From positions 106,988 to 170,987 of the forward strand of contig JBCCNL010000001.1 of the NCBI GenBank assembly GCA_039025855.1: 64,000 bases of DNA. Direction: 5' to 3'. Position 1 is the first letter of the stretch. Every line of letters starts with the position of its first letter. Origin of the DNA: Planctomycetota bacterium. Its GTDB lineage: Bacteria; Planctomycetota; Phycisphaerae; Phycisphaerales; Phycisphaeraceae. This document shows positions 23,459 through 61,432 of this stretch, piece after piece. The notes below the pieces were generated by a model. The model had not been told where the DNA came from, did no database searches, and saw only the letters and a list, made by a program, of their open reading frames with translations. The position numbers and the translations under genes were made by a program.

Positions 23459-23490
23459 GGGGTGGAGTTGAGGGTGGGGCGGGGTTGTAG

Positions 23491-23751: not shown

Positions 23752-23778
23752 GGCCTCCGACTATACCAGTGCAAGGGC

Positions 23779-24465: not shown

Positions 24466-24469
24466 CGGT

Positions 24470-27702: not shown

Positions 27703-27705
27703 GGG

Positions 27706-29960: not shown

Positions 29961-30266
29961 AGCTCTACTGTTGAAGCGAACCGGAGGCCGCCCCCAGAAT
30001 ATGGCAGAGCAGCGTTTTCCGCCAAATCGCCATGGCCCACCCAGTACAGCACGCAAACGCCCCGCAACCCCCAGCAGGCCCCGCAAAGCCCCAGAAACGC
30101 CTGAATGACCCCTGTTCGTGTCAGACGTGCAACAGAGGGGTCTGCTAGATTGATCCGCGGCAGAGGGGGGGCCTCCCCCCAGCCGATTGACGGATGTTCA
30201 ACCCGTTCCGCGGGTTCTCAGGTCGATCACCGCGTCCCTGCCGCGCCCGCTCCGGAGAGGTGTCCC
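29961..30266. promoter_or_regulatory. Divergent intergenic region between the aryl-polyene operon and the NfeD-flotillin operon. Contains a G7/C6 near-palindrome at about 30163..30181.
   Basis: Non-coding gap of 306 bp. The GGAGAGG SD-like sequence sits just before the ATG at 30267. Confidence 0.3.
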
Positions 30267-30917: not shown

Positions 30918-30941
30918 ACCCCCGCTCCGGAGCACACTGCC

Positions 30942-33059: not shown

Positions 33060-33114
33060 CCCGGCCGTTCTTCACGCATCCGCTGAGCTGCACCCGCCGT
33101 GCCCAGAGTAATCG

Positions 33115-38661: not shown

Positions 38662-38771
38662 GCCCACCGCTGCCCGCGGGGCTGTCGGCCTCGTGCGTCC
38701 GTGCCCTGCGAGCCGATATAGAATGCGTCCGCAAAACACCCTGCGGTTGCCTTGTTGATAGGAGCTCGAAC

Positions 38772-39593
38772 ATGTTCAAAGCCATCGGCCGATACTTCCG
38801 TGCACTGGGTTACCTCGTCACCGGCCGTATCGACGCCGCCCGCAGCGCCCTGTCCACCAGCCCCCACGTGGTCAACGCGACCTACGACCAGATCATCGAC
38901 GACAAGAAGAAGTCGATCCAGCAATACAAAGACGCCATCGCCCGGCTGATCGTGCAGCACGAGGGCAAGATGTCCAAGATCAAGGACGAGAGCGACTCGC
39001 TCAACCGCCTCGAACAGATGAAGGAAGGCGCCGCCGCCAAGGCCCGCTCCGTGGTGGCCGAGATGAAGGCCACCGGCGCGACGCTCGAGCAGATCAAGGC
39101 CGGCGAGGACTACCAGAAGTGCATGCTCGCCTACCAGGACTTCTCCTCGAAGATCGAAGAGAAGACCCCGCGGATCGCTGAGCTCGAATCCGATGTGAAG
39201 GAGATGGACGCGACGATCTCGGGGCACAAGCTGCAGCTCACCGAGATGCTGCGGGAGATCGAAAACCTCCGCGGCGAGCAGGCCGAGGCGGTCGCCGAGA
39301 TCATCACCGCCAAGGAGACCGCCGAGCTGAACGACATGCTCTCGGGCATCAGCAAGGACCGCACGTCGCGTGAGCTGGCCGACATGCGTCAGCTCCGCGA
39401 GGAGATGAAGGCCAAGGCCAAGGTCTCCAAGGAGCTGGCCGGCACCGACACGAAGGTGCAGGAGGACGAGTTCGTCCGGTATGCCCAGGAGAGCAAGACC
39501 TCCGATGAGTTCGACGCGTTGATCGGGCTGGCTGAAGAAGCGGACAACGCGACCCCCGACAACCCAGAGCGCGAGCCCCGGCTGCCGGAGTAG
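38772..39593 (+). CDS. PspA/IM30 (Vipp1, ESCRT-III-like) family coiled-coil protein, putative.
   Basis: 273-aa all-helical protein. N-terminal amphipathic 'MFKAIGRYFRAL'. 'KAGEDYQKCMLAYQD' resembles the conserved PspA 'kaGrEDLAReAL' motif. GGAG lies before the ATG. Confidence 0.5.
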   Translation: MFKAIGRYFRALGYLVTGRIDAARSALSTSPHVVNATYDQIIDDKKKSIQQYKDAIARLIVQHEGKMSKIKDESDSLNRLEQMKEGAAAKARSVVAEMKATGATLEQIKAGEDYQKCMLAYQDFSSKIEEKTPRIAELESDVKEMDATISGHKLQLTEMLREIENLRGEQAEAVAEIITAKETAELNDMLSGISKDRTSRELADMRQLREEMKAKAKVSKELAGTDTKVQEDEFVRYAQESKTSDEFDALIGLAEEADNATPDNPEREPRLPE

Positions 39594-39618
39594 ACCACCA
39601 CTGGTCCAACTCCAGCGG

Positions 39619-41436
39619 GTGACGCGTGGTGCCTTTGTCCGGTCGTCGATGAATACTCCCCCGCCACAACACGCCTTCTTCAGCGACCTCGCCCGCATGC
39701 TCAACGCCGGGCAGTCGCGCAGTGTCATGCTGACCGGCGAGGTCCACGACCTGTTCTACCTTGAGGCCGCCGACCGCTACGTCCCGCTGGTCCCCTACCT
39801 CTGCCGGCGATGCTCGGTCGAGGGCGTCGTCCCCCTGGTCTACGAGCTCAACGGCCCGATCCGCTGCACCAACGCCGGCGACCGCAGAACCCTCAAAGAA
39901 GCATGGGTCCGCTGGAAGACCGGCCAATCCCTCGACCAGCTCATCCTCCAATCGCTCAACGACGAGTCGGCCCGCCAGCGCCGCGAGTCCCTCGAAGAAC
40001 AGTTCGACCGACTCACCGCCGAGGCCGCCGGCCGACCCACCGCCGCCCTCGAGATGCTTCGGCAACTCACGCTCTGCTCCCGCGCACAAGCGGCACTCGG
40101 CGGCAAGCGGTTCCGGCTGCTCATCCTGGTCGAGGCCGCCGATATGCTCCTCCCCGCGGCCGACGGCGACATCACTCGGCTCAGCGCCAGCGACCGCCAG
40201 CGCGTCGCCATCTGCCAAGACTGGTTCAGCGATCCCGCCTTCATGGAGGGCGACGACAGCGTGGTACTCCTCGCCGAGTCCCGCAGCGCCATCCACCCCC
40301 GCGTCACCCGCCTGCCCCAGATGCTCACCGTCGAGGTCCCTGCCCCCGACGAGGCCCGGCGTGCCTTCTACATCGAACGCTTCACCCGCGACCGCCCGGT
40401 CAAAATCGACATGGGCACCGACGGCCTCGCCCGCCTCTCCGCCGGGCTTTCGCTGCACGCGTTGCGTCAGCTCCTGGTCGCCTCCGCCCACACCGGCACA
40501 TCCATCACCCACCACGCGGTCATCGACCTCGTCGAGCACCACATCACCAGCGCCCTCGGCGAGGGCGTCGTCGAGTTCAGCAAACCCTCGCACACCCTCG
40601 ACGATGTCGTGGGTCACCGCCGGCTGCGCGCGTTCCTCAACGACGAGCTGATCCCCCGCATCAAGTCGACCGGCGAAGACGCCCTGCCCGGCGCCGCGAT
40701 CGCCGGCCCAATCGGCTCGGGCAAGACCTTCGTCTTCGAGGCCGTCGCGGGCGGGCTCGGCCTCCCCGTCCTCGTGCTCAAGAACATCCGCAGCCAATAC
40801 TTCGGGCAGACCGACGTCATCTTCGAGAAGCTCCGACGCGTCCTCGAAGCGCTCGGCAAGGTCATCCTGTTTGTCGACGAGGCCGACACCCAGTTCGGCG
40901 GCGTCGGCGGCGACGCCCACCCCACCGAACGCCGGCTCACCGGCAAAATCCAGGCTTTGATGAGCGACCCCAAGCTCCGCGGCCGAGTCGTCTGGCTGCT
41001 CATGACCGCACGCATCGAACGCCTCAGCCCCGACATCCGACGCCCCGGCCGAGTGGGCGACCTCATCATCCCCGTGCTCGACCCCGCCCCGGGCAGCGAC
41101 GATCGCCGCGACTTCCTCCGCTGGGTCCTCAAGGGCGTCTTCGACCACCCCGACGACGCACTCCTCAATGAACTCGACCAGCTCACCCCCGGCTACTCCG
41201 CCGCCGCCTTCGCCGCCCTCCGCTCACTGCTCAAAGCCAAGGCCGCCGCGCAAGGCCAGCTCGACGCCGCCACCATCCGTGAGGTCGTCGCCGACGTCAT
41301 CCCCGCCGACATCGGCGACCAACGCGAACGCCAGACCCTCCAGGCCCTGCTCAACTGCACCCGCCGATCACTCCTGCCCGACCCGGACATCGACGAGTCC
41401 ACCCGCGAGGCGTGGCGGCGAGCCCTCGGCCAGTGA
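39619..41436 (+). CDS. Classic-clade AAA ATPase with a ~330-aa N-terminal (degenerate ATPase-like/substrate) domain.
   Basis: Walker A 'GPIGSGKTFV', Walker B 'VILFVDEAD', second region of homology 'RPGRVGDLIIPVLDP'. GTG at 39619; an alternative ATG lies at 39649. Confidence 0.8.
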   Translation: MTRGAFVRSSMNTPPPQHAFFSDLARMLNAGQSRSVMLTGEVHDLFYLEAADRYVPLVPYLCRRCSVEGVVPLVYELNGPIRCTNAGDRRTLKEAWVRWKTGQSLDQLILQSLNDESARQRRESLEEQFDRLTAEAAGRPTAALEMLRQLTLCSRAQAALGGKRFRLLILVEAADMLLPAADGDITRLSASDRQRVAICQDWFSDPAFMEGDDSVVLLAESRSAIHPRVTRLPQMLTVEVPAPDEARRAFYIERFTRDRPVKIDMGTDGLARLSAGLSLHALRQLLVASAHTGTSITHHAVIDLVEHHITSALGEGVVEFSKPSHTLDDVVGHRRLRAFLNDELIPRIKSTGEDALPGAAIAGPIGSGKTFVFEAVAGGLGLPVLVLKNIRSQYFGQTDVIFEKLRRVLEALGKVILFVDEADTQFGGVGGDAHPTERRLTGKIQALMSDPKLRGRVVWLLMTARIERLSPDIRRPGRVGDLIIPVLDPAPGSDDRRDFLRWVLKGVFDHPDDALLNELDQLTPGYSAAAFAALRSLLKAKAAAQGQLDAATIREVVADVIPADIGDQRERQTLQALLNCTRRSLLPDPDIDESTREAWRRALGQ

Positions 41437-42715: not shown

Positions 42716-44794
42716 TCAGAAACTCAACCGCTCCGCGTGCTCTTCATCGCGCACCAACACCTGCCGCCGCTGGTGCGTCGCCATGCGTCCCGCCCGACGC
42801 TGCGCCGCCCGGAACAGCCACCCCAACACCCACCCCGGTAGACGCACCGGCACCGACTTCAACAGCCGCCGACGCACCGGCGTGAACTTCACCAGCAGCG
42901 GATCGTCCAGGCTCGTGATCACCGTCGCCGTCCCCGGCTCGCCCTGCCGTGCGCTGCGACCTTCAAGCTGCCGATCTACCCGGCGTGACTCGTGACGATC
43001 CGTCGCAATCACCGCCAGCCCGCCCCGCTCGACCACGCCCTCAGGCAGCTTGATGTCCGTCCCCCGACCCGCCATGTTCGTCGCCACCGTCACCCGCCCC
43101 AGCTGCCCCGCCTCCGCGACAATCGCCGCCTCCTGCTCGTGCAGGTGCGCGTTTAGCACCGCATGCGGAACGCCCGCGCCCGTCAGCCGAACGCTCAGGC
43201 TCTGGCTGTCATCCACACTCCGCGTGCCCACCAGCACGGGCCGACCCGCAGCGTGCATTTCCCTCGTCAGCTCTGTCACCGCGTCCCACTTGGCATCCAA
43301 CGTCGGCAGCGGCCGAACAGTCTGGGTCTCGCGGCGGCATACCCGGTGCGTCGGGATCCGCACCGTCTGCATCCGATAGGTCCGCCAAAGCTCCGCCCGT
43401 TCTCCCCACGCGGTCCCGGTCATCCCGCTCAGCCGGCGGTACAGCCGGAAGAACCGCTGGAAGCTGATCGCCGCCAGCGTGTGGTTCAGGTCGCTGACCT
43501 CCAGGCCCTCCTTCGACTCGACCGCCTGGTGCAGCCCCGCCTGCCACGTGCGGTCGGGCATCAGCCGGCCCGTGCTCTCGTCCACAATCACCACCTTGCC
43601 ATCCTGCACCACGTACTGGTCGTCGCGCAGATACAGGTACTGCGCCACCAACGCCTGATACACCCGCTCTTCCAGGCGACGCACCGGGCTACGGTCCGCA
43701 TCGCCTCTCGAACCCACCAACCGCTTGATGTGTTGCCGACCCGCCTGCGTCAGGCGCAGGTCCCGGTGCCGCCGATCCAGCCGGAAGTCGCGGTCGGGCT
43801 GCAGCCGCGCCGCCAACGCCGTGGCGTCCCGATACGTGAACTCCCGGGCGTCGCCGCCCGGTGCCGTATCCGCCTTCGGCCCCGAAATAATCAACGGCGT
43901 CGTCGACTCATCAAGCAAGATCGAGTCGGCCTCGTCAATGATCGCCGCCTCACCGCGGAAGAACCGGCCCTGCGACCGCGTCGACTCACCCGTCAGGTTC
44001 CGGGCCAGAACCGAAGCGAGCGGCATCGACGCACGATCGGTCTGCGCCTGTTCCTGCAGCAGGTCACGCAGGTAGTCCGCGGCCGCCTCCTTGTGCGTCG
44101 TGTACGTGATGTCGGCCGCATACGCGCTGCCCCGATCGTGAGGCGGCGTGCCACCCGTGATGTAAGCCACGCGCAGCCCCGCGCCGCCAAACAACGGCTT
44201 GGCCCACTGGGCGTCCCGTTTAGCCAGGTAGTCGTTCACGGTGAAGACGTGACAACCCCGGCCGTGCCACCCGACCAGGCAGGCGGCCAGCGCCGCCACC
44301 AGCGTCTTGCCCTCGCCCGTCGCCATCTCCGTCATCCGGCCATCCAGCAACGCCGCGGCCGCCGCGACCTGCACGCGGTACGCATTGAGCCCCAGGGTCC
44401 GCCGCGCCGCCTCCCGGATCAGCGCGAGCGCTTCAACCCGCTGCTCGACCGTGACCGACCCTCGCCGAAACACCGCACGCTGCTCCGCCAGCCGCCCGCT
44501 CAACGCATCGATGTGCAACTCCCTGCACACCGCCTCCTGCGCGAGCACGCGGTCCGCCAAACGCAGATAACGACGCACCGAACACCGCCCCGCAACCAGG
44601 TGCGACGCGACCCACTCGTACACCGCATCGGCATGCCGACGCGGCTTCGCCGGCTGCCGGTTATGCGATCGGCTCCGCCACGCCTCCCCATCACGCCACA
44701 GCTTCGCCAGCGCCGGCGTCTGCAACTCACCCGGCCGCGCTACGCCCACGGGCTGGTTCGGGTCAGACGGGAACAGCGTGGTCAGGCTCGACAT
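42716..44794 (-). CDS. SecA-like ATPase paralogue (NBD1-PPXD-NBD2-partial HSD; the C-terminal ~200 aa of canonical SecA is absent).
   Basis: 'TEMATGEGKTLVAALA...VNDYLAKRDAQW', 'IIDEADSILLDESTTPLIISG' and 'GMTGTA...ATNMAGRGTDI' align to SecA motor motifs. The ATG at 44794 overlaps the upstream stop by 1 nt (TGATG). Confidence 0.75.
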   Translation of the reverse strand: MSSLTTLFPSDPNQPVGVARPGELQTPALAKLWRDGEAWRSRSHNRQPAKPRRHADAVYEWVASHLVAGRCSVRRYLRLADRVLAQEAVCRELHIDALSGRLAEQRAVFRRGSVTVEQRVEALALIREAARRTLGLNAYRVQVAAAAALLDGRMTEMATGEGKTLVAALAACLVGWHGRGCHVFTVNDYLAKRDAQWAKPLFGGAGLRVAYITGGTPPHDRGSAYAADITYTTHKEAAADYLRDLLQEQAQTDRASMPLASVLARNLTGESTRSQGRFFRGEAAIIDEADSILLDESTTPLIISGPKADTAPGGDAREFTYRDATALAARLQPDRDFRLDRRHRDLRLTQAGRQHIKRLVGSRGDADRSPVRRLEERVYQALVAQYLYLRDDQYVVQDGKVVIVDESTGRLMPDRTWQAGLHQAVESKEGLEVSDLNHTLAAISFQRFFRLYRRLSGMTGTAWGERAELWRTYRMQTVRIPTHRVCRRETQTVRPLPTLDAKWDAVTELTREMHAAGRPVLVGTRSVDDSQSLSVRLTGAGVPHAVLNAHLHEQEAAIVAEAGQLGRVTVATNMAGRGTDIKLPEGVVERGGLAVIATDRHESRRVDRQLEGRSARQGEPGTATVITSLDDPLLVKFTPVRRRLLKSVPVRLPGWVLGWLFRAAQRRAGRMATHQRRQVLVRDEEHAERLSF

Positions 44795-47031
44795 CAGAGA
44801 CTCAGCCCCAGCGGGGACGCGTTCGGATCGCCCGGCACCTGGAACCGCCGCTGCAACACCTGCCGCGCCGAGCGGTACCACTGCTGCAGCAGCGGCTTGT
44901 CCGGCAGGCTGAAACGCACCACCACCGTCTGCCCGTGCTGCATCGCCCAGGCGACCTGCTCCGCATCCGCCGCCTCACCCAGCTCGGGTTCGATCACGAT
45001 CTCGAAGTACGGCTCGGCCGCGGTCGTCCCCTGCGGGTCCGTCGGGTCGGTCGCGATCTGCCCCCCCGCCGCCTCCGACAACGCCGCCGAAGGCAGCCGA
45101 CGCTGACCCGCGGGCATCGCCTGCACCACCCGGCCCGAAAAACCACGGTCGGGCTGATCGGTCGGACGCACCTCCACCCGGTGATCCGCCTGCAACAAAC
45201 GCGGCCCCTCAAACTGATCCGCCGCCACCCGCACCGTCAGCCGACCCGTCTCCGCCAACACGCCAACCGGTTCACCCCGCCGCACATAGTGCCCCTGCAC
45301 ATCGTCATCCAGTGCCGGCGTCCACGTCCCCGCGAATCCCGCCGTCATCACCAGCGACGCCCGCCGCTCCCGCGCCTTCGCCAGAAGGTCCCGTGTCGCC
45401 GCCAGCTGCTCCGCAATCACCTGCCGCTGGATCGGCTCCTCCACCACCGCCCGGCGATACCGCGCTTCCAGCAACGCCTGCCGCGCCTCCAGCTCCAACA
45501 CCTCCGCGTCCAGCCGGGGGTTCGCCGCCGACACCAGCACCCCCCCCGCCGACACCTCCGCATCCGACCCCGCGATCGATTCCACAAACCCCTCCGCCTC
45601 GGCATGCACCGTCACCAGCCGTGCCGGCTCCAACACCCCCAGCGCCCTCGGCCGGTCCGGCACCGGCACCCACCCCAACACCAGCAACGGCCCGCCGATC
45701 ATCAACACCGTCGCCAGCACCGCCCGCCCACGCACCCGCGCCGGCTCCGGCGACGCGCTCAGGTAATGCACCAGCTTGATCGACGGGATCACCAGATACC
45801 CCACCAACGCCAAGATCACAAAGATCGCCCCAATGAAGAACAGCTTGTCCGCCACAAACATGATGATCACCACGCCAAGGAACAGCCGGTACGCCAACGA
45901 CGCCAGCCCGAACACCACAAACCAGAAGCGCTCCTTGAGGTTCCCACCCGCCGCCGGATTGATCAGCTGCCGCACCCCGTAGACATACCGCCGGATTAGG
46001 TACGTCATGTACTGCTGCGCACGCTGATACAGGTTCGGCGTCTCGATGACATCGGACAGGATGTAGTAACCATCAAACTTGATCAGTGGGTTCGCGTTGA
46101 ACAGGATCGTCGACACACCAGCGATGAAGATCAGGTTGTAAGCCAACGCGTGGGCCAGCGTCCCGTCCGCCGTCTGCGACCAGACCACCGCCGCCACCGC
46201 CGCCACCGCGAGCTCGGCATACATCCCCGCCGCCCCCACAAACGCCCGCTGCCATTTGCTCGGAAGCGTCCACGCACTCGTCGCATCGACATACGGCACC
46301 GGCGTCAACACCATCAGCATGATCCCCACCGTGTGCACCTCGCCCTGCCCGTGACGCCGACGCCCGAACCGCTTGCACGCAAACGCATGCCCCAACTCGT
46401 GCAGCAGCTTGATCCCCACCAGACACACGTAAAGCCAAATCAAGTTCTGCGGCGCAAGCACATTCCCCGTCTGCGCCCACAGCTCATCAAACCGCCCCAG
46501 CAACGACCACCCACCCAGCACCAGCAGCCCGGCCCACAGCACCCAGCCCACCGGCCCAAACAACCAGGCCACCGCCGGCAGCCAACGATTCAAAAACCGG
46601 TCCGGGTCCCAGATCGGCACCCGCGCAAACAACAGGTTCTTGAGATACCCACCCACCTCCTTGCGGATCCGCTTCTGCCGCCGTTCAAACATCCGCCCCG
46701 CGTCCGGTGACAGCTCGTGGTCCAACAAGTTGCTCGTGTGCAGCTGCCCGATCAGCCGCAGCGCCTCGCCCTGTGTTGGCGCCTCGTCCTCGAGCTGTTC
46801 CTGTACCGCTTCCCACGCGTCCTGGATGCTCCGACGCCCGTCGAGCAGCCCGACAAACCGATACCCCGCTGCGCTCAGCCGGAAGTGCTGGTTGTTCGAC
46901 GGGTCCATCACCACGTACCACTGCCTACCGCGATATTGCTGACGACCGCACTGCACCGTCGAGCGCAGCCTCGGCTTCGTCTCCGCAATGCGGTGCCAGG
47001 AGTCGTCGTAGGTCGGCCGTTCAAACGCCAA
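44794..47031 (-). CDS. Fusion of a site-2-protease (peptidase M50) transmembrane domain with a HlyD-type periplasmic adaptor (membrane-fusion protein).
   Basis: 'LLHELGHAFACKRFG' (HExxH) and 'NANPLIKFDGYYIL' (the S2P LDG motif) lie in TM segments. The C-terminal half has biotinyl/lipoyl-like and beta-barrel MFP segments. Start is TTG at 47031 or downstream. Confidence 0.7.
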   Translation of the reverse strand: MAFERPTYDDSWHRIAETKPRLRSTVQCGRQQYRGRQWYVVMDPSNNQHFRLSAAGYRFVGLLDGRRSIQDAWEAVQEQLEDEAPTQGEALRLIGQLHTSNLLDHELSPDAGRMFERRQKRIRKEVGGYLKNLLFARVPIWDPDRFLNRWLPAVAWLFGPVGWVLWAGLLVLGGWSLLGRFDELWAQTGNVLAPQNLIWLYVCLVGIKLLHELGHAFACKRFGRRRHGQGEVHTVGIMLMVLTPVPYVDATSAWTLPSKWQRAFVGAAGMYAELAVAAVAAVVWSQTADGTLAHALAYNLIFIAGVSTILFNANPLIKFDGYYILSDVIETPNLYQRAQQYMTYLIRRYVYGVRQLINPAAGGNLKERFWFVVFGLASLAYRLFLGVVIIMFVADKLFFIGAIFVILALVGYLVIPSIKLVHYLSASPEPARVRGRAVLATVLMIGGPLLVLGWVPVPDRPRALGVLEPARLVTVHAEAEGFVESIAGSDAEVSAGGVLVSAANPRLDAEVLELEARQALLEARYRRAVVEEPIQRQVIAEQLAATRDLLAKARERRASLVMTAGFAGTWTPALDDDVQGHYVRRGEPVGVLAETGRLTVRVAADQFEGPRLLQADHRVEVRPTDQPDRGFSGRVVQAMPAGQRRLPSAALSEAAGGQIATDPTDPQGTTAAEPYFEIVIEPELGEAADAEQVAWAMQHGQTVVVRFSLPDKPLLQQWYRSARQVLQRRFQVPGDPNASPLGLSL

Positions 47032-47057
47032 TGCAGAACCTCAATCGTCAATCGGCG

Positions 47058-49073
47058 TCAGAGCCAGAGCTGCATCCGCACCCAGTTCACCGCGTCCCGC
47101 GTCCACAACCAGAGGTGGCTCGACTCGCCCGCATCCAGCCGGGCCGCGCCCGTCATCCCCGGCCGAAGCCAGACCGGCTGACGGTCCAGCTCCACCTCCG
47201 CCGCGAACACGTTCCGCCCCTCGTGCACCTTCGCCTGAGGCTCGATCGACCGCACCGTGAAGCCCACCCGCTGATCCGGGTAACTCGTCGTCGCCAGCTC
47301 GCCCCGCATCCCCAGCGTCACCTCTCCCGCCCGGTCCTCCGGGATATAAAGCTCCGCCCGCAGCGCCTCCACGGGCGCGACCTCAAAGAGCGTGTCGCCC
47401 TCCGTCACCGCCTTCCCGATCTCACGCTTCAGGTCGCCCGCCATCACCATCCCGCCCAGCGACGACCGCAGTGCCGCCATCTCGATCTGCCGTTCAATCA
47501 AGCGGCGCTTCGCCGCCGTCGCCTCCGCCTCCGCCATCGACACCTGAACGCCCGACATGTCCGACTCCCGCCGCGCCGCCTCCGCCTGCTTCCGCTGCGC
47601 CGTCTCCTGCGCCCAGAGCTCCGCCGCCTGCAACCGGAGCTCCGCCGTATCCAGCTCCGCCAACACCGTCGCCCCCGCCTGCACCGCATCGCCCGGCCCA
47701 ACATGCACCGACTTCAGATACCCCGCGAACGGCGCCGTCACCAGCTGCCGCTGCGTCGCCTCAATCACAAAGCTCGACTCCACATGGTCCGTCCCCTTGC
47801 CCAGCGTCAACCACAGCACCAACGCCAAGAGCCCGACCGCTGCGACCTTCGCCCAGGTGTACTGCGTGCCCAGCGCTTTGCCGAGCACCCGTGTGCTCCC
47901 GTCCTTGAGCCGACCCCCCACCCAACGGTCACGCTGCCGCAGCGGCACCAGCAACGGCGTCGCCAACTCACCAATCAACCGCAACCGCGTCAACCGCTGC
48001 GCCGTCTCCGCGGCGTCCTTCGGCAGCTCGTTCCACTCCAGCGTCAGCACCGCCACCACCCCGCCCTCCCGTCCCTGCTCCGACTCGCCGCTCACCTCGC
48101 CCTTCGCCCCGCCCACGTGACGCAGCGGAAGCGACACCGCACACGCCGAGCCGTGCTGCTTCGTCAACGCCTGATGGTCTCGGCTCACCACCGGCACCTC
48201 GGGCGGCGCGGGCCACACCACCTCGATGTCCTGATCCAGACACTCGTGCATCGCCGACTCCAGGTCCTGCACCAGCTTCATCCGCCGGTTCAGCCGCTCG
48301 GTCCGGCTCATCGCGATCAGCTTGAGCGCCTCCCGCTGCGGCTCCACCCAACCCAGGCTCACCCGCTCCGCCCCGTGCCGCGACGCCAGCTCGTTGCACA
48401 ACCCCATGGCCGCCTCACGGAACCGCCGACAACGCCCCAGCGCCGCCAAGACATCCACCGATTCCGTCAGCCGATCGATCCCGCCCTGCTTCTGGTGCAG
48501 CTGCGCCCGCGCGTCATACGCCCCGAGCAACCCAAGCGTCAGCTCCACCTGCTGCGCCGCCCGATCCACCTCGCCCCGCGACACGCCCTGAAGCCCCAGC
48601 GCCACCATGAACCGTCCTTCCCCGCCATCCAACCCGACCGACTGCGGCAGGCCCAACAACACCAAGAACTGCTCACTCGCCGACTCCGGCGGCGCAGTCG
48701 TTGCGGTCGCATTCTCAGCCGGGACGGACTGACGGATCCCCATCACCACCGGCGTCGACCGCGCAAACACCCGCTCCGCCTGCTCCGCCGCGAACCGCAC
48801 CCAGGGCGGTGGCAACCGATCCGGGTGCGGGTTGTAGTCCGCCACCACCGCCGGCCCGGACTGCGGCATAAACCGGATCACCACCCCGTGGTCCGCGCCC
48901 GTCAGCCGGCCCTGAAGCGTCACCAACCGCTGCAGGAACTCCGGAGCCGGGCCATCGAACCGCGCCAGCATCTCCACGACCGTCGGCCGCTTCGCGTCGG
49001 CCGCCGGCTGCTGCCCCAAGCCCCCACCCGACAGCCCCGCACCACCCGAAGAAGATCGACCTGATTCATCCAT
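47058..49073 (-). CDS. HlyD-family membrane-fusion protein with an N-terminal cytoplasmic GAF-like sensory region.
   Basis: ATG at 49073. The N-terminal ~330 aa are soluble and alpha/beta GAF-like. A TM segment ('VAAVGLLALVLWL') is followed by an MFP lipoyl hairpin and barrel ('VTAPFAGYLKSVHVGPGDAV'). Confidence 0.6.
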   Translation of the reverse strand: MDESGRSSSGGAGLSGGGLGQQPAADAKRPTVVEMLARFDGPAPEFLQRLVTLQGRLTGADHGVVIRFMPQSGPAVVADYNPHPDRLPPPWVRFAAEQAERVFARSTPVVMGIRQSVPAENATATTAPPESASEQFLVLLGLPQSVGLDGGEGRFMVALGLQGVSRGEVDRAAQQVELTLGLLGAYDARAQLHQKQGGIDRLTESVDVLAALGRCRRFREAAMGLCNELASRHGAERVSLGWVEPQREALKLIAMSRTERLNRRMKLVQDLESAMHECLDQDIEVVWPAPPEVPVVSRDHQALTKQHGSACAVSLPLRHVGGAKGEVSGESEQGREGGVVAVLTLEWNELPKDAAETAQRLTRLRLIGELATPLLVPLRQRDRWVGGRLKDGSTRVLGKALGTQYTWAKVAAVGLLALVLWLTLGKGTDHVESSFVIEATQRQLVTAPFAGYLKSVHVGPGDAVQAGATVLAELDTAELRLQAAELWAQETAQRKQAEAARRESDMSGVQVSMAEAEATAAKRRLIERQIEMAALRSSLGGMVMAGDLKREIGKAVTEGDTLFEVAPVEALRAELYIPEDRAGEVTLGMRGELATTSYPDQRVGFTVRSIEPQAKVHEGRNVFAAEVELDRQPVWLRPGMTGAARLDAGESSHLWLWTRDAVNWVRMQLWL

Positions 49074-49085
49074 CGCCGATCCTTT

Positions 49086-49952
49086 TCAATTCGCCACCGC
49101 CGTCGGCTCCGCGTCCGCTTCCTGAACCAAAGCCTCCGCCTCCCGCGGCAGCCACACCAGGAACCCAGCCGGCAGCGACAGGTCGCTGTTGTCAATCGCA
49201 AACACACACCGGAACGTCTGACTCGCCGGGTCGATCATCGGGTCCACCCACTTCAGCTCCGCCCGCAAGCCCCGCCCCACCGGTGCCCCCGCCTGCAGCT
49301 CGTACCGCTGACCCACCTCCATCTGCCCGTACCGCGCGACCGGCAAAAACAGCTCGGCCTTGAGTTCCGTCAACGACGCAAACACCGCCACCGGATCGCC
49401 CTGGTCCACCGTCGCACCCGGCTGCGCCTCCAGCTTCATCACCCGCCCATCGAACGGCGCCTTCAGTGCAAACCGTTCCAGACGCGCCTGCTCCAGATCA
49501 AACTGCAGCGCCGCCGCATCACGATCCTGCTTCGCGATCGCCAGGTCGATCTTCGAGAGCTCCAGCTGCACCCGAGCCTGACGGACCTCCCAGTCCGTCC
49601 CCGCGTCCTGCTTCACCATGTCCTTCGCCTGCTCCAGCCGGAGCTGCAACTCGTTGACCGCCTCGACCGCACGACGCACCGACAGGTCGCTCTCCGACCG
49701 CATCTGCGCCAACGCCACCGCCTCCGCCTGACCCCGATCCGCCAGCCTTGCGATCAACTCACCCGCCGACCGGGCCTCGCCCTCCGCCGCCAACTCACCC
49801 GGGATCACCTGGCCCACCGCCTCGGCCCGCAGCACCACGTACCGCGTCGGCTTCACGATGCCTTGATCCAGCATCGCGTCCTGCGCCGCCACAACACCCG
49901 CAGCACCAACGCTCACAAACGCAAAAATTGACCGTTTCAGGAGTTCTTTCAC
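49086..49952 (-). CDS. Short HlyD/RND-type periplasmic adaptor (membrane-fusion protein) with a signal peptide.
   Basis: GTG at 49952. Signal peptide 'SIFAFVSVGAAGVVAAQ'. Coiled-coil hairpin plus the 'LKAPFDGRVMKLEAQPGATV' lipoyl motif. Confidence 0.65.
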   Translation of the reverse strand: MKELLKRSIFAFVSVGAAGVVAAQDAMLDQGIVKPTRYVVLRAEAVGQVIPGELAAEGEARSAGELIARLADRGQAEAVALAQMRSESDLSVRRAVEAVNELQLRLEQAKDMVKQDAGTDWEVRQARVQLELSKIDLAIAKQDRDAAALQFDLEQARLERFALKAPFDGRVMKLEAQPGATVDQGDPVAVFASLTELKAELFLPVARYGQMEVGQRYELQAGAPVGRGLRAELKWVDPMIDPASQTFRCVFAIDNSDLSLPAGFLVWLPREAEALVQEADAEPTAVAN

Positions 49953-50376
49953 CCACTGAGACTACCGCCCGCCATCGACGTACACAAGAGATACTTCGCG
50001 CCGATTCAGGCCCGACCACGACGCCTTGTCAAGAGCACACTAAGTAATTCCGTAGAAACCGTTAACGAGTCTTCGAAAACCCGCCGCAGGGGCGATAAAC
50101 CACGCCCGGATCAAGGCCAGTCCCGCCCCGCTCCGACGCCCCATCAAATGGGCCGCTCGTGGTTGTTTCCGTCCCAACGGCCGATTATTGTTAACGGTTG
50201 ACAATCATCGCGACGATCCAGTCCCCCAAGCACGCGGCCCCTCGTTGTTTTCACCTCGTCGTGACACGGACCGCCAGGACGCACCGCTCACCCAGCGCGC
50301 CGCTCAGCCCGGCGACCAACCCCGCCATCTCCCCGCCGACTCCCCCCGCTCCTCCCGTCTCCAGAAAGCCCACGCC
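49953..50376. promoter_or_regulatory. Divergent intergenic region with an inverted repeat AACCGTTAAC (50057..50066) / GTTAACGGTT (50190..50199). The second copy abuts a TTGACA -35-like hexamer.
   Basis: Seen directly. Lower GC than the flanking sequence. Confidence 0.3.
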
Positions 50377-52053
50377 ATGAAGACCCCCACGCCGCTGCTT
50401 CTGATCCTGCTCCTGGCAATGACCAGCCTCGCCTGCACCGGCCCCAGCCCCACCGCCAAGGCCGACGGCCACAACCCGCCCGCACCCCCCAACATCATCT
50501 TCATCATCACCGATGACCAGGAGCGCCGAGAGCTCGGCTTCCTCGAAAACCAATCCCACACCCCCCACCTCGACGCCCTCGCCGCAGGCGGCACCTACTT
50601 CAGCAACTGCTACGTCAACTCCAGCGTCTGCACCCCCAGCCGCTACGGCGTCATGACCGGCCAATACGCCAGCCGAAGCGAAACCGACTTCTTCAAGCGG
50701 CACACCAGCGCAGAGGGCGTCACCCAGGTCGTCTGGAACCCCGGCCTCATGCCCGACCAGCCCACCCTCCCCTCGGTCCTCAAAGAAGCCGGCTACGCCA
50801 CCGGCTTCGTCGGCAAGTGGCACATCGGCAGCCTCAAACGCGCCCCGGGCCCCAAGCTCGAGCAAGGCGCCGACCCCGCCGACCAGGCCACCATCGCCCG
50901 CCTCAAAGCCAACCAAGCCTCCTTCGCCGAAGACCTCCGCACCAAAGGCTTCGACTTCGCCGACGCCATCTACTCCGGCAACCCCGACGACGACCAGGAA
51001 CTCAAACGCGTCGGCCTCAACGTCCACCACCAGGAGTGGGTCACCCGCGGCGGCCTCAATTTCATCGATCAGTCCGTCGCCCAGGACAAGCCCTTTTTCC
51101 TCTACTTCTCGACCACGCTCACCCACGTCCCCAAGCCGCTCGAATCCCTCAAGCTCGACCCCCGCGTCTCACCCATCGGCATGCTCGACGCACCCATCGA
51201 AGGCGTCCAACCCTCCCGCGCCGACGTCATCGCCCGCGGCCAACAACTCGGCATCCCCGAAGAACTCTGGGGCTCGATGTGGCTTGACGACGGTATCGGC
51301 GCCCTCACCGCCAAGCTCCGCGAACATGGCATCGAAGACAACACCCTCATCGTCTACTTCGTCGATCACGGCATGGAGTTCCGCAGCAAAGGCACCTCCT
51401 ATCAAGGCGGCCTCATCTCCCCAACCCTCTTCTTCTGGCCCGGCCAAGTCCCCGCGGGCAAGACCCAGGACGCCCTGATCCAGAACATCGACTTCGCCCC
51501 CACCTTCCTCGAACTCGCCGGTGCCACCCCGCCCGCAAGCATGGTGATCGACGGTAAGTCGCTCGTCGAACTCATCCGCGGCAGCGACGCCCCCGTCCGC
51601 AAGTCCGTCTTCAGCGAGCTCGGCCTCACCCGCACCGTCGTCACCGCCGACGGCTGGAAGTACCTCGCCTTCCACGTCCCGCCCAGCCTCCAACGCACGA
51701 CCGAAGAGCGTCTGGCCGACCACAAAAAGCGCCTCAGTGAGATCCACACCAAACACCCGTGGACCCGCAACAACCCGCACTACGCGCTCGACCCCGAAGC
51801 CAAGTACTTCCAGCTCGGCATGGCCGCCGGCGGCAACGTCTTCGAGCGCAACCAGCTCGCCGGCAATGTGCCTTTCCGAGCCCACTACTTCGACGCGCAT
51901 CAGCTCTTCAACCTCAACGCCGACCCGGACGAGACGACCAACCTCGCGGACGACCCGAAATACGCCGACAAGCTCGCCGAGATGCAGGCCGAGCTCACGG
52001 TCTACCTCGACAGCCTCCCCGGCACGTACGGCGACCTCAAGCCCAGCGAGTAA
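50377..52053 (+). CDS. Sulfatase (formylglycine-dependent, S1 family), lipoprotein.
   Basis: ORF 50188..52053 trimmed to the ATG at 50377 (MKTPTPLLLILLLAMTSLAC). 'IIFIITDDQ' and 'CTPSRYGVMTGQY' (CxPxR) signatures. Confidence 0.9.
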   Translation: MKTPTPLLLILLLAMTSLACTGPSPTAKADGHNPPAPPNIIFIITDDQERRELGFLENQSHTPHLDALAAGGTYFSNCYVNSSVCTPSRYGVMTGQYASRSETDFFKRHTSAEGVTQVVWNPGLMPDQPTLPSVLKEAGYATGFVGKWHIGSLKRAPGPKLEQGADPADQATIARLKANQASFAEDLRTKGFDFADAIYSGNPDDDQELKRVGLNVHHQEWVTRGGLNFIDQSVAQDKPFFLYFSTTLTHVPKPLESLKLDPRVSPIGMLDAPIEGVQPSRADVIARGQQLGIPEELWGSMWLDDGIGALTAKLREHGIEDNTLIVYFVDHGMEFRSKGTSYQGGLISPTLFFWPGQVPAGKTQDALIQNIDFAPTFLELAGATPPASMVIDGKSLVELIRGSDAPVRKSVFSELGLTRTVVTADGWKYLAFHVPPSLQRTTEERLADHKKRLSEIHTKHPWTRNNPHYALDPEAKYFQLGMAAGGNVFERNQLAGNVPFRAHYFDAHQLFNLNADPDETTNLADDPKYADKLAEMQAELTVYLDSLPGTYGDLKPSE

Positions 52054-52068
52054 TCACCGAGACCTCTC

Positions 52069-52986
52069 ATGCCCATCGCCTCACGCCCTGTCACCCAAGC
52101 GGTCTGCATTTTCATTATGGCTCTAACCTCTTCCTTCACGTCCGGCTGCGCCGGCGACGGCTCGCCCACCACGGGCCCGTTCCTCTTGCCCGGAACCGAC
52201 ACCGACGCCGAGGCCCTGCGCTGGTCCCCGGTTGACAACATGTCCGACGAGTTCGACGGCAACACCGTCGACGCCACCAAGTGGCAGACCGAGCCCTTCG
52301 AGAACGGCTGGGTCTGGATCGGCCGACCTCCCGGGCTGTTCAAATCCGAAAACATCAGCGTCGCCGACGGCTCACTCAACGTCACCGTCAGCGGCCTGCC
52401 GGAAACGTTCGAGAAGAACGGCCGGACCTACGACTACCAGGGCGGCATCGTCCGCTCCCTCCACGCCGGACAGCCCGGCTGGTACTACGAGACCCGCATG
52501 AAGGCCAACGCGACCGTCATGTCCTCCACCTTCTGGCTCATGACCTCGAACCGATCGGCCAGCAAGAAGAAGCTCGAGCTCGACATCCAGGAGTGCGTCG
52601 GGCTCACCACCGACCTCACCTTCGACTGGGCCCGCACCTGGGACCAGATCTACCACTCCAACATGATCCACCGCGTCAACCAGTACAACCCAGAGCCGGT
52701 GCAGCACCAGAAATCCGTCCCCACGGAGACCAAGAACCACGAGCGCTACTACGTCTACGCCGCCTGGTGGAAGTCACCCGAAGAAGTCCGGTTCTACCTC
52801 GACGGGGCCTACGTCTACTCCATCACCCCACCGATCACCTGGGACGTCCCCGCCTTCCTCCAGATGGCCATCGAGACCTACGACTGGAACCCCGTCCCCG
52901 AGGACGGCGGGCTGATCACCACCGGCACGCTCGACCAACGCACCACCCGCTACGACTGGGTTCGCGTCTGGAAACCCGAACAGTAG
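52069..52986 (+). CDS. Glycoside hydrolase family 16 (beta-jelly-roll glycanase).
   Basis: Catalytic motif 'ELDIQE'. Lipoprotein signal (FTSGCAG). Confidence 0.8.
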   Translation: MPIASRPVTQAVCIFIMALTSSFTSGCAGDGSPTTGPFLLPGTDTDAEALRWSPVDNMSDEFDGNTVDATKWQTEPFENGWVWIGRPPGLFKSENISVADGSLNVTVSGLPETFEKNGRTYDYQGGIVRSLHAGQPGWYYETRMKANATVMSSTFWLMTSNRSASKKKLELDIQECVGLTTDLTFDWARTWDQIYHSNMIHRVNQYNPEPVQHQKSVPTETKNHERYYVYAAWWKSPEEVRFYLDGAYVYSITPPITWDVPAFLQMAIETYDWNPVPEDGGLITTGTLDQRTTRYDWVRVWKPEQ

Positions 52987-53108
52987 ACACAGCCCGATCA
53001 CCCGCCCGACGCCGGCGGTCAACAGCGAGCCGGGGCGTGTCGCCCCGGTCCAACCAACCCGCCGCTCCCGCCCCCCACCACCCCCCACCGCCCCCACCGA
53101 GCCACCCG

Positions 53109-54500
53109 ATGCCTCAATCGACCGCCGACCGACCGGCGTCCGCCGCTACCGCCCCATTCAAAGAACACTGGACCTCGCTCCGCCAACACCGCACCCCCGA
53201 CTGGCTCGCCGACGCCAAGTTCGGCATCTACTGCCACTGGGGCATCAATACCATCTGGTACCAGCCCGAATACGCCGACCTCTCCGCCGAAGAGGCCGTT
53301 GACAAGTGGACCGCCGACGCGTTCGACCCCGACGGCTGGGCCGAACTCTTCCAACGAGCCGGCGCCCGCTTCGGCGGCCCGATCGCCCTGCACTCCGAAC
53401 CCTTCCCCTACTGGGACAGCGCCCTCACCGACTTTAACTGCGTCAAGCGCAACCCCCACACCGACATCCTCGGCCGGGTCAGCGACGCCCTCAAACGCCG
53501 TGGCCTCAAGGTCATGACCAGCTTCCACCAGTGCAACGACACCACCTGCTTCGCCCGTGCCCGGGAAGTCATCGACAAATACCTGCCCGACCTGCTCTGG
53601 TTCGACGCGAGCTTCGGCGGCACCAAGGCCGCCCACCATCAGAAGATCCTCAAGCACTCCCGCTTCCTCGGCACAACCGACCAAACGCAAGACGAACCCG
53701 ACCTCGGCGGCGGCGACCCTCAAGCCCACATCGAGCAGGTCTCCGACCGTGAACAACGCAAGCTCCTCGCCTACTACTACAACCGCGCCGCAGAGGCCGG
53801 CCGCGACGTCGAGGTCGTCTACAAGTCCCACGACCTCCCGCCCGGCGTCGCCATGCGCGACCTCGAAAACGGGCTCATGCCCGATACCGCTTACGACGTC
53901 TGGATGAGCGACATCGACATCACCGTCGTCCCCGACTGGAAGACGCACGGCTGGTTCTACCGCGAAGGCATCCCCTTCCGCTCGGCCGGCAACATCGTCC
54001 ACCTCCTCGCCGACATCACCAGCAAGAACGGCATCCTCCTGCTCAACGTCCCCCCCAAAGCCGACGGCTCCTTCACCGACGAGACCCACCGCACCCTCGG
54101 CCAAGTCGGCGACTGGCTCCAGACCCACGGCGAAGCCATCTACAGCACCGCCCCGTGGTGCTACAGCGGCGAAGGCCCCACCGAGATCGGCACCTGGACC
54201 GACGTCCTCCACCACAACGACCACTTCGGCAAGATCCGGTTCACCCCCGAAGACATCCGCTTCACTACCCGCGACGACAAGCTCTATGCCATCTGCCTCG
54301 GGCCCATCGCCAACCAAGTCCACATCCGCGCCTTCTCAACGGACCACCGCCTCATGGCCGGCCAGGCCAAGCACGTCGAACTGGTCGGCTCCGACGCCCC
54401 CCTCGACTGGCAGCACACACCCCACGGCATGACCATCACCCTCCCCGACAGCGTCACCCCCGACCCGCTCGCCAGCGTCTTCCGCGTCACCGTCGACTAA
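53109..54500 (+). CDS. Alpha-L-fucosidase (GH29).
   Basis: ORF 52281..54500 trimmed to the ATG at 53109 because upstream it overlaps the GH16 gene in another frame. 'DAKFGIYCHWGINT' resembles the GH29 N-terminus. No signal peptide is seen. Confidence 0.7.
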   Translation: MPQSTADRPASAATAPFKEHWTSLRQHRTPDWLADAKFGIYCHWGINTIWYQPEYADLSAEEAVDKWTADAFDPDGWAELFQRAGARFGGPIALHSEPFPYWDSALTDFNCVKRNPHTDILGRVSDALKRRGLKVMTSFHQCNDTTCFARAREVIDKYLPDLLWFDASFGGTKAAHHQKILKHSRFLGTTDQTQDEPDLGGGDPQAHIEQVSDREQRKLLAYYYNRAAEAGRDVEVVYKSHDLPPGVAMRDLENGLMPDTAYDVWMSDIDITVVPDWKTHGWFYREGIPFRSAGNIVHLLADITSKNGILLLNVPPKADGSFTDETHRTLGQVGDWLQTHGEAIYSTAPWCYSGEGPTEIGTWTDVLHHNDHFGKIRFTPEDIRFTTRDDKLYAICLGPIANQVHIRAFSTDHRLMAGQAKHVELVGSDAPLDWQHTPHGMTITLPDSVTPDPLASVFRVTVD

Positions 54501-54535
54501 ACCACCCCACCCAGCACCGAACCAGGAACCGCGCC

Positions 54536-54904
54536 ATGAGCCAGCACGTCGTCATGTACAACGAACCCCACGGTGCAACCCTCGCCACGCAGCCCGCACC
54601 CATCGCCGAGGGCGTCGACTACGCCGGCTGGTCCATCATGACCACCGAGTCAGCGGGCGTCTCCGTGATCGTGCTCAAGGGCGAACCCGATGCCGTCGAG
54701 TTCCCGATGCACGCGGTCCCCGACGCCTACTTCGGCTACGTCGTTGCCGGGCAGGTCATCATCCACGCCGGCAACGCCGACGGCGAAAAGCTCGACGAAA
54801 CCACCCTCACCGCCGGCGACCTGCTCACCCTCGAACCCGACACGCAGCACGCCTGGGTTAACACCGGCGGCCCCGCCGAGATCATCTTCACCAAACCGGC
54901 CTAA
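54536..54904 (+). CDS. Small cupin-fold protein.
   Basis: ATG at 54536 within ORF 54155..54904. 122 aa with a beta-rich 'GYVVAGQVIIHAGNADG...LEPDTQHAWVN' cupin motif-like region. Confidence 0.5.
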   Translation: MSQHVVMYNEPHGATLATQPAPIAEGVDYAGWSIMTTESAGVSVIVLKGEPDAVEFPMHAVPDAYFGYVVAGQVIIHAGNADGEKLDETTLTAGDLLTLEPDTQHAWVNTGGPAEIIFTKPA

Positions 54905-54919
54905 GCCAATCGGCCACCG

Positions 54920-57418: not shown

Positions 57419-57560
57419 CGTTTCTCTCGCAGGCTCGGTCGCTCGGGCACGACATCTCGAAGACGGGCATTGTAAATTGTTGGCTTTTCGGCGGCGTCAA
57501 CCCCCACACGTCTCCCACTACCCCTTACCAACCCCCACCACCTCCCCGAGACTTGCAACC

Positions 57561-59096: not shown

Positions 59097-59112
59097 GACC
59101 GATACGTTTCCC

Positions 59113-60585: not shown

Positions 60586-60602
60586 AGCGAACCTTCTAGG
60601 GT

Positions 60603-61424: not shown

Positions 61425-61432
61425 CTCACTCC

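Follow-up and report, generated by a model that had tools for sequence, protein, structure and literature searches.

The 64,000-nucleotide stretch of the Planctomycetota bacterium contig JBCCNL010000001.1 that was analyzed here (the window, ~67% GC) carries on its minus strand an operon of four genes that encode, in order, a small periplasmic adaptor protein (PAP, also called membrane-fusion protein or MFP), a GAF-PAP fusion, a fusion of a PqqD-like recognition element, an M50 (site-2-type) metalloprotease and a PAP domain (M50-PAP), and a short SecA-like ATPase. Comparison of this module among genomes suggests, with a probability that we put at roughly 0.6, that it serves LEPR-XLL proteins, which are often giant and adhesin- or RTX-like, as a dedicated exporter across the envelope and as their leader peptidase. 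More tentatively, it may represent a previously unrecognized type of secretion system, in which giant LEPR-XLL proteins would be exported in one step, N-terminus first and independently of SecYEG, with cleavage of their leader. Known parts are combined here in a way that no described secretion or efflux system matches, and we found no description of the module or of a LEPR-XLL secretion route in the full-text literature, subscription-only papers aside. An earlier reading of this DNA from its letters alone (the sequence-only reading) had proposed that the four genes export or process a specific substrate, and that proposal is supported and strengthened, as other genomes have a TolC-like gene next to the module and there is now a probable class of substrate (both below).

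The four open reading frames (ORFs) have coding-type GC contents at third codon positions (GC3 0.83-0.89) and together occupy positions 42716-49952 of the window (Table 1). They are separated by gaps of 12 bp (49074-49085) and 26 bp (47032-47057), and the last two overlap by a single nucleotide: the M50-PAP gene stops at a TGA at 44796-44794 and the SecA-like gene starts at an ATG at 44794-44792 (the junction reads CTC TGA TG TCG). Four minus-strand genes with just these gaps and a 1-nt TGATG overlap were what the sequence-only reading had described. Because the ATG overlaps the M50-PAP stop codon at 44794, the SecA-like coding sequence is taken to be 42716-44794, and its product is 100% identical to that of locus tag AAF750_00555. 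The overlap of start and stop codons suggests that the two genes are translationally coupled and that their products form a 1:1 complex. Neither flank of the operon is related to the module: on the 3' side, 4 bp separate the SecA-like stop codon from the end of a convergent gene for an MR/MLE-family enolase, and on the 5' side there is a divergent sulfatase gene. A promoter and terminator scan of the operon gave nothing above the shuffled background, and there is no sigma-70-type consensus in 49953-50187. Domain scans of the window ORFs found neither an ABC or RND pump nor a TolC-like gene adjoining the four genes, in agreement with the earlier reading, and a hidden Markov model (HMM) built from the module-linked TolC-like proteins of other genomes detected no outer-membrane factor (OMF) anywhere in the window. 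The nearest transporter-family match in the window is an MMPL-family ORF (25234-27702) that lies about 15 kb off within an unrelated lipid cluster.

Scanning a genome collection with an alignment of the M50-PAP protein gave 80 loci, and gene neighborhoods were counted on 83 loci by tblastn and by all-against-all clustering of the locus ORFs, with flanks of 10 kb. The adjacency of the SecA-like and M50-PAP genes, which the sequence-only reading had singled out for a synteny check, turned out to be conserved: the short SecA gene is found directly 3' of the M50-PAP gene in 61 of the 69 testable loci (62 if one split copy is included), and the GAF-PAP gene is directly 5' of it in 65 of 68 (66 by tblastn). 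An orthologous small PAP gene is present within 10 kb in 56 of the 83 loci, on either side of this core and in either orientation. A TolC-like OMF gene adjoins the module in 18 of the 83 (Pfam OEP, E 1e-24 to 6e-40) and also on a Methylosinus and a Thalassospira plasmid; the missing TolC appears to be a local trait of the window and not of the system. No ABC, RND or MFS transporter family is conserved in the 83 neighborhoods by flank clustering, nor are SecY2 or Asp genes, a precursor-sized ORF or a modifying enzyme. The operon recurs in several forms, namely OMF, PAP, GAF-PAP, M50-PAP, SecA; DUF3467, GAF-PAP, M50-PAP, SecA, PAP; and PAP, (DUF3467), GAF-PAP, M50-PAP, SecA, of which the window has the last without DUF3467, and the core order is the same in three complete Phycisphaerae genomes. 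The hosts belong to diderm phyla, namely Planctomycetota, Verrucomicrobiota, Lentisphaerae, Nitrospirota, Methylomirabilota, Desulfobacterota, Myxococcota, Bacteroidota and Proteobacteria, and include Phycisphaerae, Tepidisphaerales, Pirellulales, Nitrospira, Methylomirabilia, Rokubacteria, Flavobacteriales and Beta- and Gammaproteobacteria (Accumulibacter, Limnohabitans, Motiliproteus and Thiogranum). The module is real, ancient and widespread, and it is not specific to Planctomycetes.

What might such a module export? Its neighbors include genes for proteins with an N-terminal LEPR-XLL motif (NCBIfam model NF012209, LEPR-8K, with a cutoff of 17 bits). A regular-expression search at the starts of long ORFs found this motif in the immediate neighbor of the module in 20 of the 83 genome loci and nowhere else in their 10-kb flanks. 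This neighbor may follow the SecA gene, precede the module on the same strand, diverge from its first gene or lie within the cluster. Within 1.5 kb of the module, an open frame of 900 codons or more is present in about 30 of the 83 loci, and the N-termini of many of these are out of sight because the frames run off the end of the locus. The linkage extends to plasmids of cultured Alphaproteobacteria, which were found by tblastn of plasmids: at all six annotated plasmid loci a giant LEPR-XLL gene, encoding 4,033 to ~12,900 residues, lies directly upstream of the module on the same strand (Table 1). The Pseudosulfitobacter giant protein, for example, scores 32.3 bits with NF012209, and in Methylosinus the giant gene is followed by DUF3467, GAF-PAP, M50-PAP, SecA, PAP and TolC genes in that order. 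Two further contexts were found through DUF3467; in one an 18,499-residue protein precedes DUF3467, GAF-PAP, M50-PAP, SecA and PAP, and in the other a 4,468-residue protein is encoded directly upstream of DUF3467.

The leader consensus of these proteins is a basic stretch followed by F-x-F/L-E-x-L-E-P-R-x-L-L-S-A, after which the plasmid giants have a D; an example of a LEPR peptide is PLIESLEPRVLLSATPS. The window has a protein of this class as well, which matches NF012209 at residues 38-58 with 26.2 bits; its N-terminus contains APLIESLEPRVLLSATPS with the motif IESLEPRVLLSA, and it has Calx-beta, PA14, cadherin-like, Big_9 and GSDH domains. When the LEPR-XLL N-termini of the plasmid giants and of the window protein were read directly, no hydrophobic core of the Sec type was seen in any of them. 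The start of the 24-kb Alisedimentitalea scapharcae gene appears to have been annotated too far downstream (NZ_CP123586.1, ~183224-183350), as the frame upstream of the annotated methionine encodes VVEQLEPRLLLAADFTIS, which carries the LEPR motif.

The short SecA-like protein consists of a non-homologous N-terminal extension of ~70 residues, nucleotide-binding domain 1 (NBD1), the preprotein cross-linking domain (PPXD), NBD2 and the first half of the scaffold helix, the last forming its final ~50 residues (Pfam SecA_DEAD 2e-83, SecA_PP_bind 1.8e-28 and P-loop_SecA 9.8e-52). Its alignment with Bacillus subtilis SecA covers only residues 15-553 of the latter, and within this region the Walker A, DEAD-like and arginine-finger motifs are kept (MATGEGKT, IDEADS, TNMAGRGTDI and GRSARQGEPG). 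The wing domain, the two-helix finger (IRA1) and the C-terminal Zn/SecB-binding tail are absent, and the protein ends at about residue 658 of Escherichia coli SecA, in a numbering that is approximate. The Pfam matches and the B. subtilis alignment thus bear out the sequence-only reading, which had seen an ATPase with NBD1, PPXD and NBD2 and without the C-terminal domains of SecA.

Truncation by a sequencing frameshift is excluded as the cause of this shortness: hundreds of relatives are equally short (610-720 residues), 29 of 30 syntenic copies from many phyla stop at E. coli residue 656-665 (the one exception among the 30 aligned copies being an ORF called with a C-terminal extension), and the convergent gene ends only 4 bp from the stop codon. 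The best 120 homologs are all 608-715 residues long; among the best 150 representatives of 50%-identity clusters 148 are shorter than 725 residues, and 145 of these have 627-721. The nearest full-length SecA, a Bacillus cereus-group protein with 43% identity, first appears at about 411 bits. The protein reaches the cutoffs of neither the housekeeping SecA models (TIGR00963, 557 bits against 814; NF009538, 533.9 against 800) nor the accessory SecA2 models (TIGR03714, 439.9 against 930; TIGR04221, 427.1 against 725; TIGR04397, 487.6 against 1085; NF012136, 394.8 against 1100). Short SecAs have a mean identity of 46% to one another and 40% to canonical SecAs. The canonical SecAs form one clan in a neighbor-joining tree, a rough phylogeny with only three canonical sequences, a result that fits a single origin of the short SecAs but is not a rigorous test. 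Is the short SecA an addition to the housekeeping protein or its replacement? There is no full-length secA within the 64-kb window. Tblastn of plasmids found plasmid-borne short SecA genes in Rhizobium, Mesorhizobium and Ensifer, and secA is chromosomal and essential, so the coexistence of a housekeeping secA with the short gene is implied in these hosts; the rhizobial copies argue, indirectly, that the short SecA is an extra paralog.

The names under which these proteins are filed in databases need correction, as do those of the M50-PAP proteins. NCBI calls several short SecAs "prepilin peptidase" and others "DEAD/DEAH box helicase", and M50-PAP proteins are found as "PqqD family peptide modification chaperone", "site-2 protease family protein", "biotin/lipoyl-binding protein" and "hypothetical protein"; all these names look systematically misleading (records of this kind in our analysis include entries P0002, P0055, P0070, L085 12050-14074 and L091 14204-16120). 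NCBIfam has no dedicated model for any of the four module proteins.

The sequence-only reading had described the 745-residue M50-PAP protein as a fusion of M50 and HlyD domains; both are indeed present, but the list was incomplete, as a PqqD domain had been missed. Pfam gives Peptidase_M50 (PF02163) 28.6 bits (cutoff 27.2), PqqD (PF05402) 27.6 bits at residues 39-103 (cutoff 23.4) and a weak HlyD_3 match. The best NCBIfam match is the daptide_HExxH model, with 176.9 bits over residues 20-417, below its cutoff of 300, and the YydH model gives 29.6 bits, far from its cutoff of 225. Residues H211, E212 and H215 of the HExxH motif and N312, N314, P315 and D320 of the NxxPxxxxDG motif are invariant in 40 homologs, and both motifs lie on predicted transmembrane helices in an AlphaFold2 model (predicted local distance difference test score, pLDDT, 85). 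Judged by such conserved motifs, both the M50 and the SecA-like domains are probably catalytically competent. The same model addresses the question of fusion-protein topology that the earlier reading had left for prediction, with seven transmembrane helices, a membrane beta-hairpin, the N-terminus in and the C-terminus out. Its N-terminal RRE (recognition element of the kind found in pathways for ribosomally synthesized and post-translationally modified peptides, RiPPs) has a three-strand/three-helix fold at 27-99 (strands 27-33, 36-43 and 48-52; helices 54-61, 69-83 and 87-99), and its C-terminal ~290 residues form lipoyl, alpha-hairpin (505-558) and beta-barrel domains. Foldseek matches this C-terminal part to MacA, MexA and AcrA with E values of 7e-12 to 1e-9, so that the modeled domain is a true PAP fold with an alpha-hairpin. 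Given a cytoplasmic RRE and seven transmembrane helices, the model would place the adaptor domain in the periplasm and the zinc site toward the cytoplasmic face.

The other two adaptors are simpler. The 671-residue GAF-PAP protein has a cytoplasmic N-terminal half of ~400 residues, one transmembrane helix (407-425) and then a periplasmic adaptor domain. The HlyD part of the GAF-HlyD fusion that the sequence-only reading had recognized is readily detected (Table 1), but its GAF part is not, since no Pfam match at E <= 0.01 is seen in the N-terminal half of the window copy; a GAF, GAF_2 or GAF_3 match is, on the other hand, present in 31 of 33 aligned orthologs (best E 3.9e-13). The 288-residue protein has a hydrophobic N-terminal signal or anchor (residues 4-27) and, with 88 bits in the RND_mfp model (cutoff 94.9) and the Pfam matches in Table 1 (HlyD_3 1.1e-17), is by its sequence an adaptor of the RND/MacA type, in line with the HlyD adaptor that had been read there before.

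How could these parts work together? We propose that the products of the four genes form the core, in the inner membrane and the periplasm, of a dedicated envelope-spanning system for protein export and leader processing. The cytoplasmic PqqD-type RRE of M50-PAP would bind the LEPR-XLL leader as an added beta-strand, as RREs do in RiPP pathways; the short SecA would clamp the unfolded chain by its PPXD and use ATP to feed it N-terminus first; and the M50 domain, with its active site close to the cytoplasmic side of the membrane, would cut off the leader. The adaptor domains of the small PAP, GAF-PAP and M50-PAP would form a periplasmic tunnel that docks onto a TolC-like channel, which would be encoded elsewhere in the genome of the window and is encoded next to the module in other genomes, and the cytoplasmic GAF domain might gate the whole system in response to a small ligand. 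The weakest step of this scheme is the inner-membrane conduit, which could be made of the transmembrane helices of oligomeric M50-PAP and GAF-PAP, independently of SecY, or could still be SecYEG fed by the short SecA. The latter is less likely because the two-helix finger has been lost. What the sequence comparisons show is the order of the genes, their domains and catalytic motifs, the conservation of the module and its linkage to OMF and LEPR-XLL genes; leader binding and cleavage, the direction of transport, the identity of the channel and its independence from SecYEG are all steps that we infer.

Several points weigh against this interpretation, the evidence for which is all comparative and in silico. 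In the window itself neither a LEPR-XLL gene nor a TolC-like gene adjoins the module, the nearest LEPR-XLL gene being ~29 kb off, and about two-thirds of the loci show no large neighboring gene. LEPR-type proteins may be numerous in Planctomycetes, and adjacency seen in that phylum alone would therefore be weak evidence. Some giant neighbors carry RTX/HemolysinCabind repeats, which are typical of type I substrates with C-terminal signals, and because of such repeats a separate ABC system could export them. No adjoining SecA gene is present at 7-8 of the genome loci and in the Thalassospira plasmid variant, and DUF3467, although linked in about one-quarter of the loci, is left unexplained by the scheme. 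Finally, canonical SecA inserts its two-helix finger into the SecY channel; a short SecA without this finger leaves the route of force transmission unaccounted for, and neither a hydrophobic-segment scan nor the AlphaFold2 model reveals an obvious inner-membrane channel protein in the module.

The lack of an obvious channel protein in the module would suit a two-step accessory Sec system, in which the short SecA delivers LEPR-XLL or other clients to ordinary SecYEG, the M50 domain serves as a dedicated signal peptidase, and the adaptors and TolC move the periplasmic intermediate onward, like MacAB-TolC with enterotoxin STII. A genuine SecA motor with a PPXD clamp would fit such a role, and accessory SecA paralogs for very large adhesins do exist in Gram-positive bacteria. 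We nevertheless regard it as unlikely, because the wing, the two-helix finger (IRA1) and the C-terminal tail are absent from 29 of the 30 aligned short SecAs, the protein scores below every SecA2 family cutoff, SecY2 and Asp genes are not conserved in the 83 neighborhoods, LEPR leaders lack a hydrophobic core of the type that SecYEG recognizes, and the tight coupling to the M50-PAP gene through overlapping codons points to a direct partner. A more doubtful idea is regulated anchoring and release as in LapD/LapG/LapA, where a separate type I system would do the exporting while the GAF domain senses a signal and the M50 domain cleaves the LEPR region. It would leave unexplained the ATP-driven polypeptide motor with its preprotein clamp, as well as the three adaptor proteins and the linked TolC-like channel; no ABC exporter is conserved beside the giant genes, and the M50 active site is predicted to be near the cytoplasmic face beside the RRE and not in the periplasm. 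What speaks for it is a GAF sensor domain on a membrane protein, protease active-site motifs whose conservation suggests function, calcium-binding RTX-type repeats in several of the giant neighbors, and the N-terminal retention modules of RTX adhesins, which are a known target of regulated proteolysis.

Might the substrate instead be small? An exporter and leader peptidase for a RiPP-type peptide would suit the PqqD domain, which is above its Pfam cutoff, the daptide intramembrane metalloprotease as best NCBIfam match, the likeness to daptide and YydH proteases and the NCBI name that refers to peptide modification, and leader-peptide export coupled to a peptidase is a known theme. The chances of this are slim, since the daptide score is well under the equivalog cutoff, DUF3467 is the only small conserved neighbor in the 83 neighborhoods, where no precursor-sized ORF or modifying enzyme is conserved, and the recurrent neighbors are proteins of thousands of residues. 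Least probable is an unusual efflux pump for small molecules or lipids, in which the SecA-like and M50-like parts have become degenerate scaffolds. Three RND/MacA-type adaptor proteins and a linked TolC-like protein are what such a pump would have, but ATPase and protease alike have strictly conserved catalytic motifs, PPXD and RRE are polypeptide-binding modules, and no transporter permease is conserved nearby.

The proposed exporter and leader peptidase has partial counterparts among known systems. In logic it resembles the peptidase-containing type I systems, which consist of an ABC transporter with a peptidase domain (PCAT), a HlyD-type adaptor and TolC (e.g., CvaAB-TolC for colicin V) and in which a protease of the inner-membrane exporter recognizes and cuts an N-terminal leader. 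An adaptor, a TolC-like channel and one-step export would be shared with them, and their substrate gene is often in the same operon. The module differs in having no ABC transporter, so that its energy would come from a SecA-type DEAD motor; in having an intramembrane M50 zinc protease with a PqqD-type recognition domain in place of a C39 cysteine protease; in having three different adaptors, two of them fused to other domains; and in its proposed clients, which are giant proteins and not small bacteriocins. RiPP leader peptidases of the PqqD-M50 kind (daptide MpaP-like, YydH/LiaK) have the same architecture as the N-terminal 420 residues of M50-PAP, which differs from them by its sub-cutoff scores and an extra C-terminal periplasmic adaptor domain of ~290 residues; the module has giant-protein neighbors and none of the RiPP precursor or tailoring genes.

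In Gram-positive bacteria and mycobacteria, accessory Sec systems (those with SecA2, and those with SecA2/SecY2 and Asp proteins) likewise use a SecA paralog for special clients, which in SecA2/SecY2 systems are surface adhesins of very large size whose N-terminal signals are atypical. The scaffold is retained in known SecA2 proteins, and the wing as well in those of the SecA2/SecY2 type (mycobacterial SecA2 is without it); their partner is SecY or SecY2, whereas the short SecA stops in the first scaffold helix and is coupled to adaptors, a protease and TolC in diderms. Almost equal to it in extent is the N68 fragment of E. coli SecA, which also has NBD1, PPXD and NBD2, lacks IRA1 as well and ends at ~610 as against ~660 here. 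N68 is, however, a laboratory truncation with a deregulated ATPase and no translocation activity, while the short SecAs form a family that is conserved in nature, with an N-terminal extension of their own and dedicated membrane partners. The LapA/LapBCE/LapG/LapD system likewise has a giant adhesin, a TolC-type channel, N-terminal proteolysis of the adhesin and a membrane protein that senses a small ligand in the cytoplasm; it uses an ABC exporter, a C-terminal signal, a periplasmic cysteine protease and c-di-GMP sensing by a degenerate EAL domain, and its proteins are not homologous to the SecA-like or M50 parts of the module.

SecA-derived domains have been associated with giant proteins before. 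Giant proteins of Omnitrophota and Actinobacteriota embed SecA_DEAD and PPXD regions without scaffold or wing, and these regions were proposed to serve the giant protein's own export (bioRxiv 10.1101/2023.11.21.568195); in the module, by contrast, SecA is a protein of its own (650-700 residues), whose gene shares an operon with those for adaptors, a protease and, often, TolC. In Chlorobium chlorochromatii, SapC and TolC genes flank the genes for LEPRxLL giants, which are expressed together with a secA of horizontal origin (Cag_1676), and a sap-like type I route was proposed for these giants (bioRxiv 10.64898/2026.03.19.712371).

LEPR-XLL proteins of 4,000 to more than 30,000 residues are annotated in many phyla, including the giants of the "Chlorochromatium aggregatum" symbiosis, and their export is an open problem. 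If the proposed role of the module is true, it explains how bacteria export their largest proteins, provides a new energizing principle in which a SecA motor acts outside the SecYEG context, gives a physiological role to a natural "N68-like" SecA, and extends the logic of RREs and leader peptides from small RiPPs to giant proteins. Because the module is present on plasmids of cultured rhizobia, methanotrophs and roseobacters, the hypothesis is open to direct genetics.

Some further features of the module loci deserve mention. The DUF3467 gene, which is absent from the window, adjoins the module in 21-23 of the 83 loci and is linked to it on five plasmids, where, as elsewhere, it lies directly 5' of GAF-PAP. 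It encodes a protein of ~105-130 residues with a disordered N-terminus and a conserved domain of ~85 residues (core SYANVCNV..EEV.L.FG.N...R..LSP.AAKRL...YE..FG), whose fold is weakly predicted as beta4-alpha (pLDDT 61.6) with no significant match in the PDB. Genes of the SapC family are found beside the module on two roseobacter plasmids (L085 11236-12057 and L087 1758-2555), in one case between M50-PAP and SecA and in the other beside the giant gene, and SapC may be another accessory component. The loci without an adjoining SecA are L095 (the Thalassospira marina plasmid), L015, L019, L021, L026, L041, L053 and L058; most of these still have GAF-PAP, PAP or TolC beside M50-PAP, and the motor may be encoded elsewhere or be dispensable in them. 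Replacement of SecA by an ABC exporter at the 7-8 genome loci was considered and rejected, as the downstream genes there are unrelated housekeeping genes (encoding an HrpA-like helicase, succinate dehydrogenase, trigger factor/ClpX, a PEP-CTERM protein and a VWA protein).

Table 1. The four-gene module and related features of the window (positions are those of the window), and the genes directly upstream of the module on six plasmids
Feature	Location	Strand	Size	Match, basis or NCBI name
Small PAP (MFP)	49086-49952	minus	288 aa	HlyD_3 1.1e-17, HlyD_D23 2.6e-13 (Pfam)
GAF-PAP fusion	47058-49073	minus	671 aa	HlyD_3 4.2e-15 at residues 535-639 (Pfam)
PqqD-like RRE + M50 (site-2-type) metalloprotease + PAP fusion	44794-47031	minus	745 aa	Pfam, AlphaFold2
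Short SecA-like ATPase	42716-44794	minus	692 aa	Pfam, NCBIfam, alignments
Intergenic region between operon and divergent sulfatase gene	49953-50187		235 bp	Presumed promoter region, from position alone
Candidate substrate, LEPR-XLL surface-type protein	9855-13886	plus	1343 aa	NF012209 match
Upstream gene	Alisedimentitalea scapharcae plasmid		24.4 kb	"calcium-binding protein"
Upstream gene	Pseudosulfitobacter sp. DSM 107133 plasmid		38.7 kb	"LEPR-XLL domain-containing protein"
Upstream gene	Mesorhizobium ciceri R30 plasmid		31.6 kb	"Ig-like domain-containing protein"
Upstream gene	Methylosinus sp. C49 plasmid		26.5 kb	"LamG-like jellyroll fold domain-containing protein"
Upstream gene	Pontibrevibacter nitratireducens plasmid		31.8 kb	"LEPR-XLL domain-containing protein"
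Upstream gene	Thalassospira marina plasmid		12.1 kb (4,033 aa)	"LEPR-XLL domain-containing protein"

The remainder of the window contains other gene clusters. A run of lipid or pigment biosynthesis genes occupies 14198-30086 on the minus strand and encodes a FAD-dependent halogenase, an FkbO/Hyg5-like chorismatase, a ketosynthase, a lipid-A-type acyltransferase, a LolA-like protein, a UbiE-type methyltransferase, a GT2 glycosyltransferase, an acyltransferase, an MMPL-family exporter and an AMP-ligase; this set resembles aryl-polyene or flexirubin-type clusters. Neighboring the module is a five-gene cluster on the plus strand (30105-41436) that encodes an 1848-residue DUF3686/DUF7902/AAA ATPase, a 605-residue AAA protein and three proteins of 270, 705 and 273 residues without a Pfam match. 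It was rejected as a known defense system, as PADLOC gives at most a weak IetA/LmuB-like AAA similarity. On the other side of the module, 50188-63334 contains polysaccharide degradation genes for two sulfatases, a GH2 glycosidase, a porphyranase-like protein and an aldehyde dehydrogenase, a gene set that is typical of marine Phycisphaerae.

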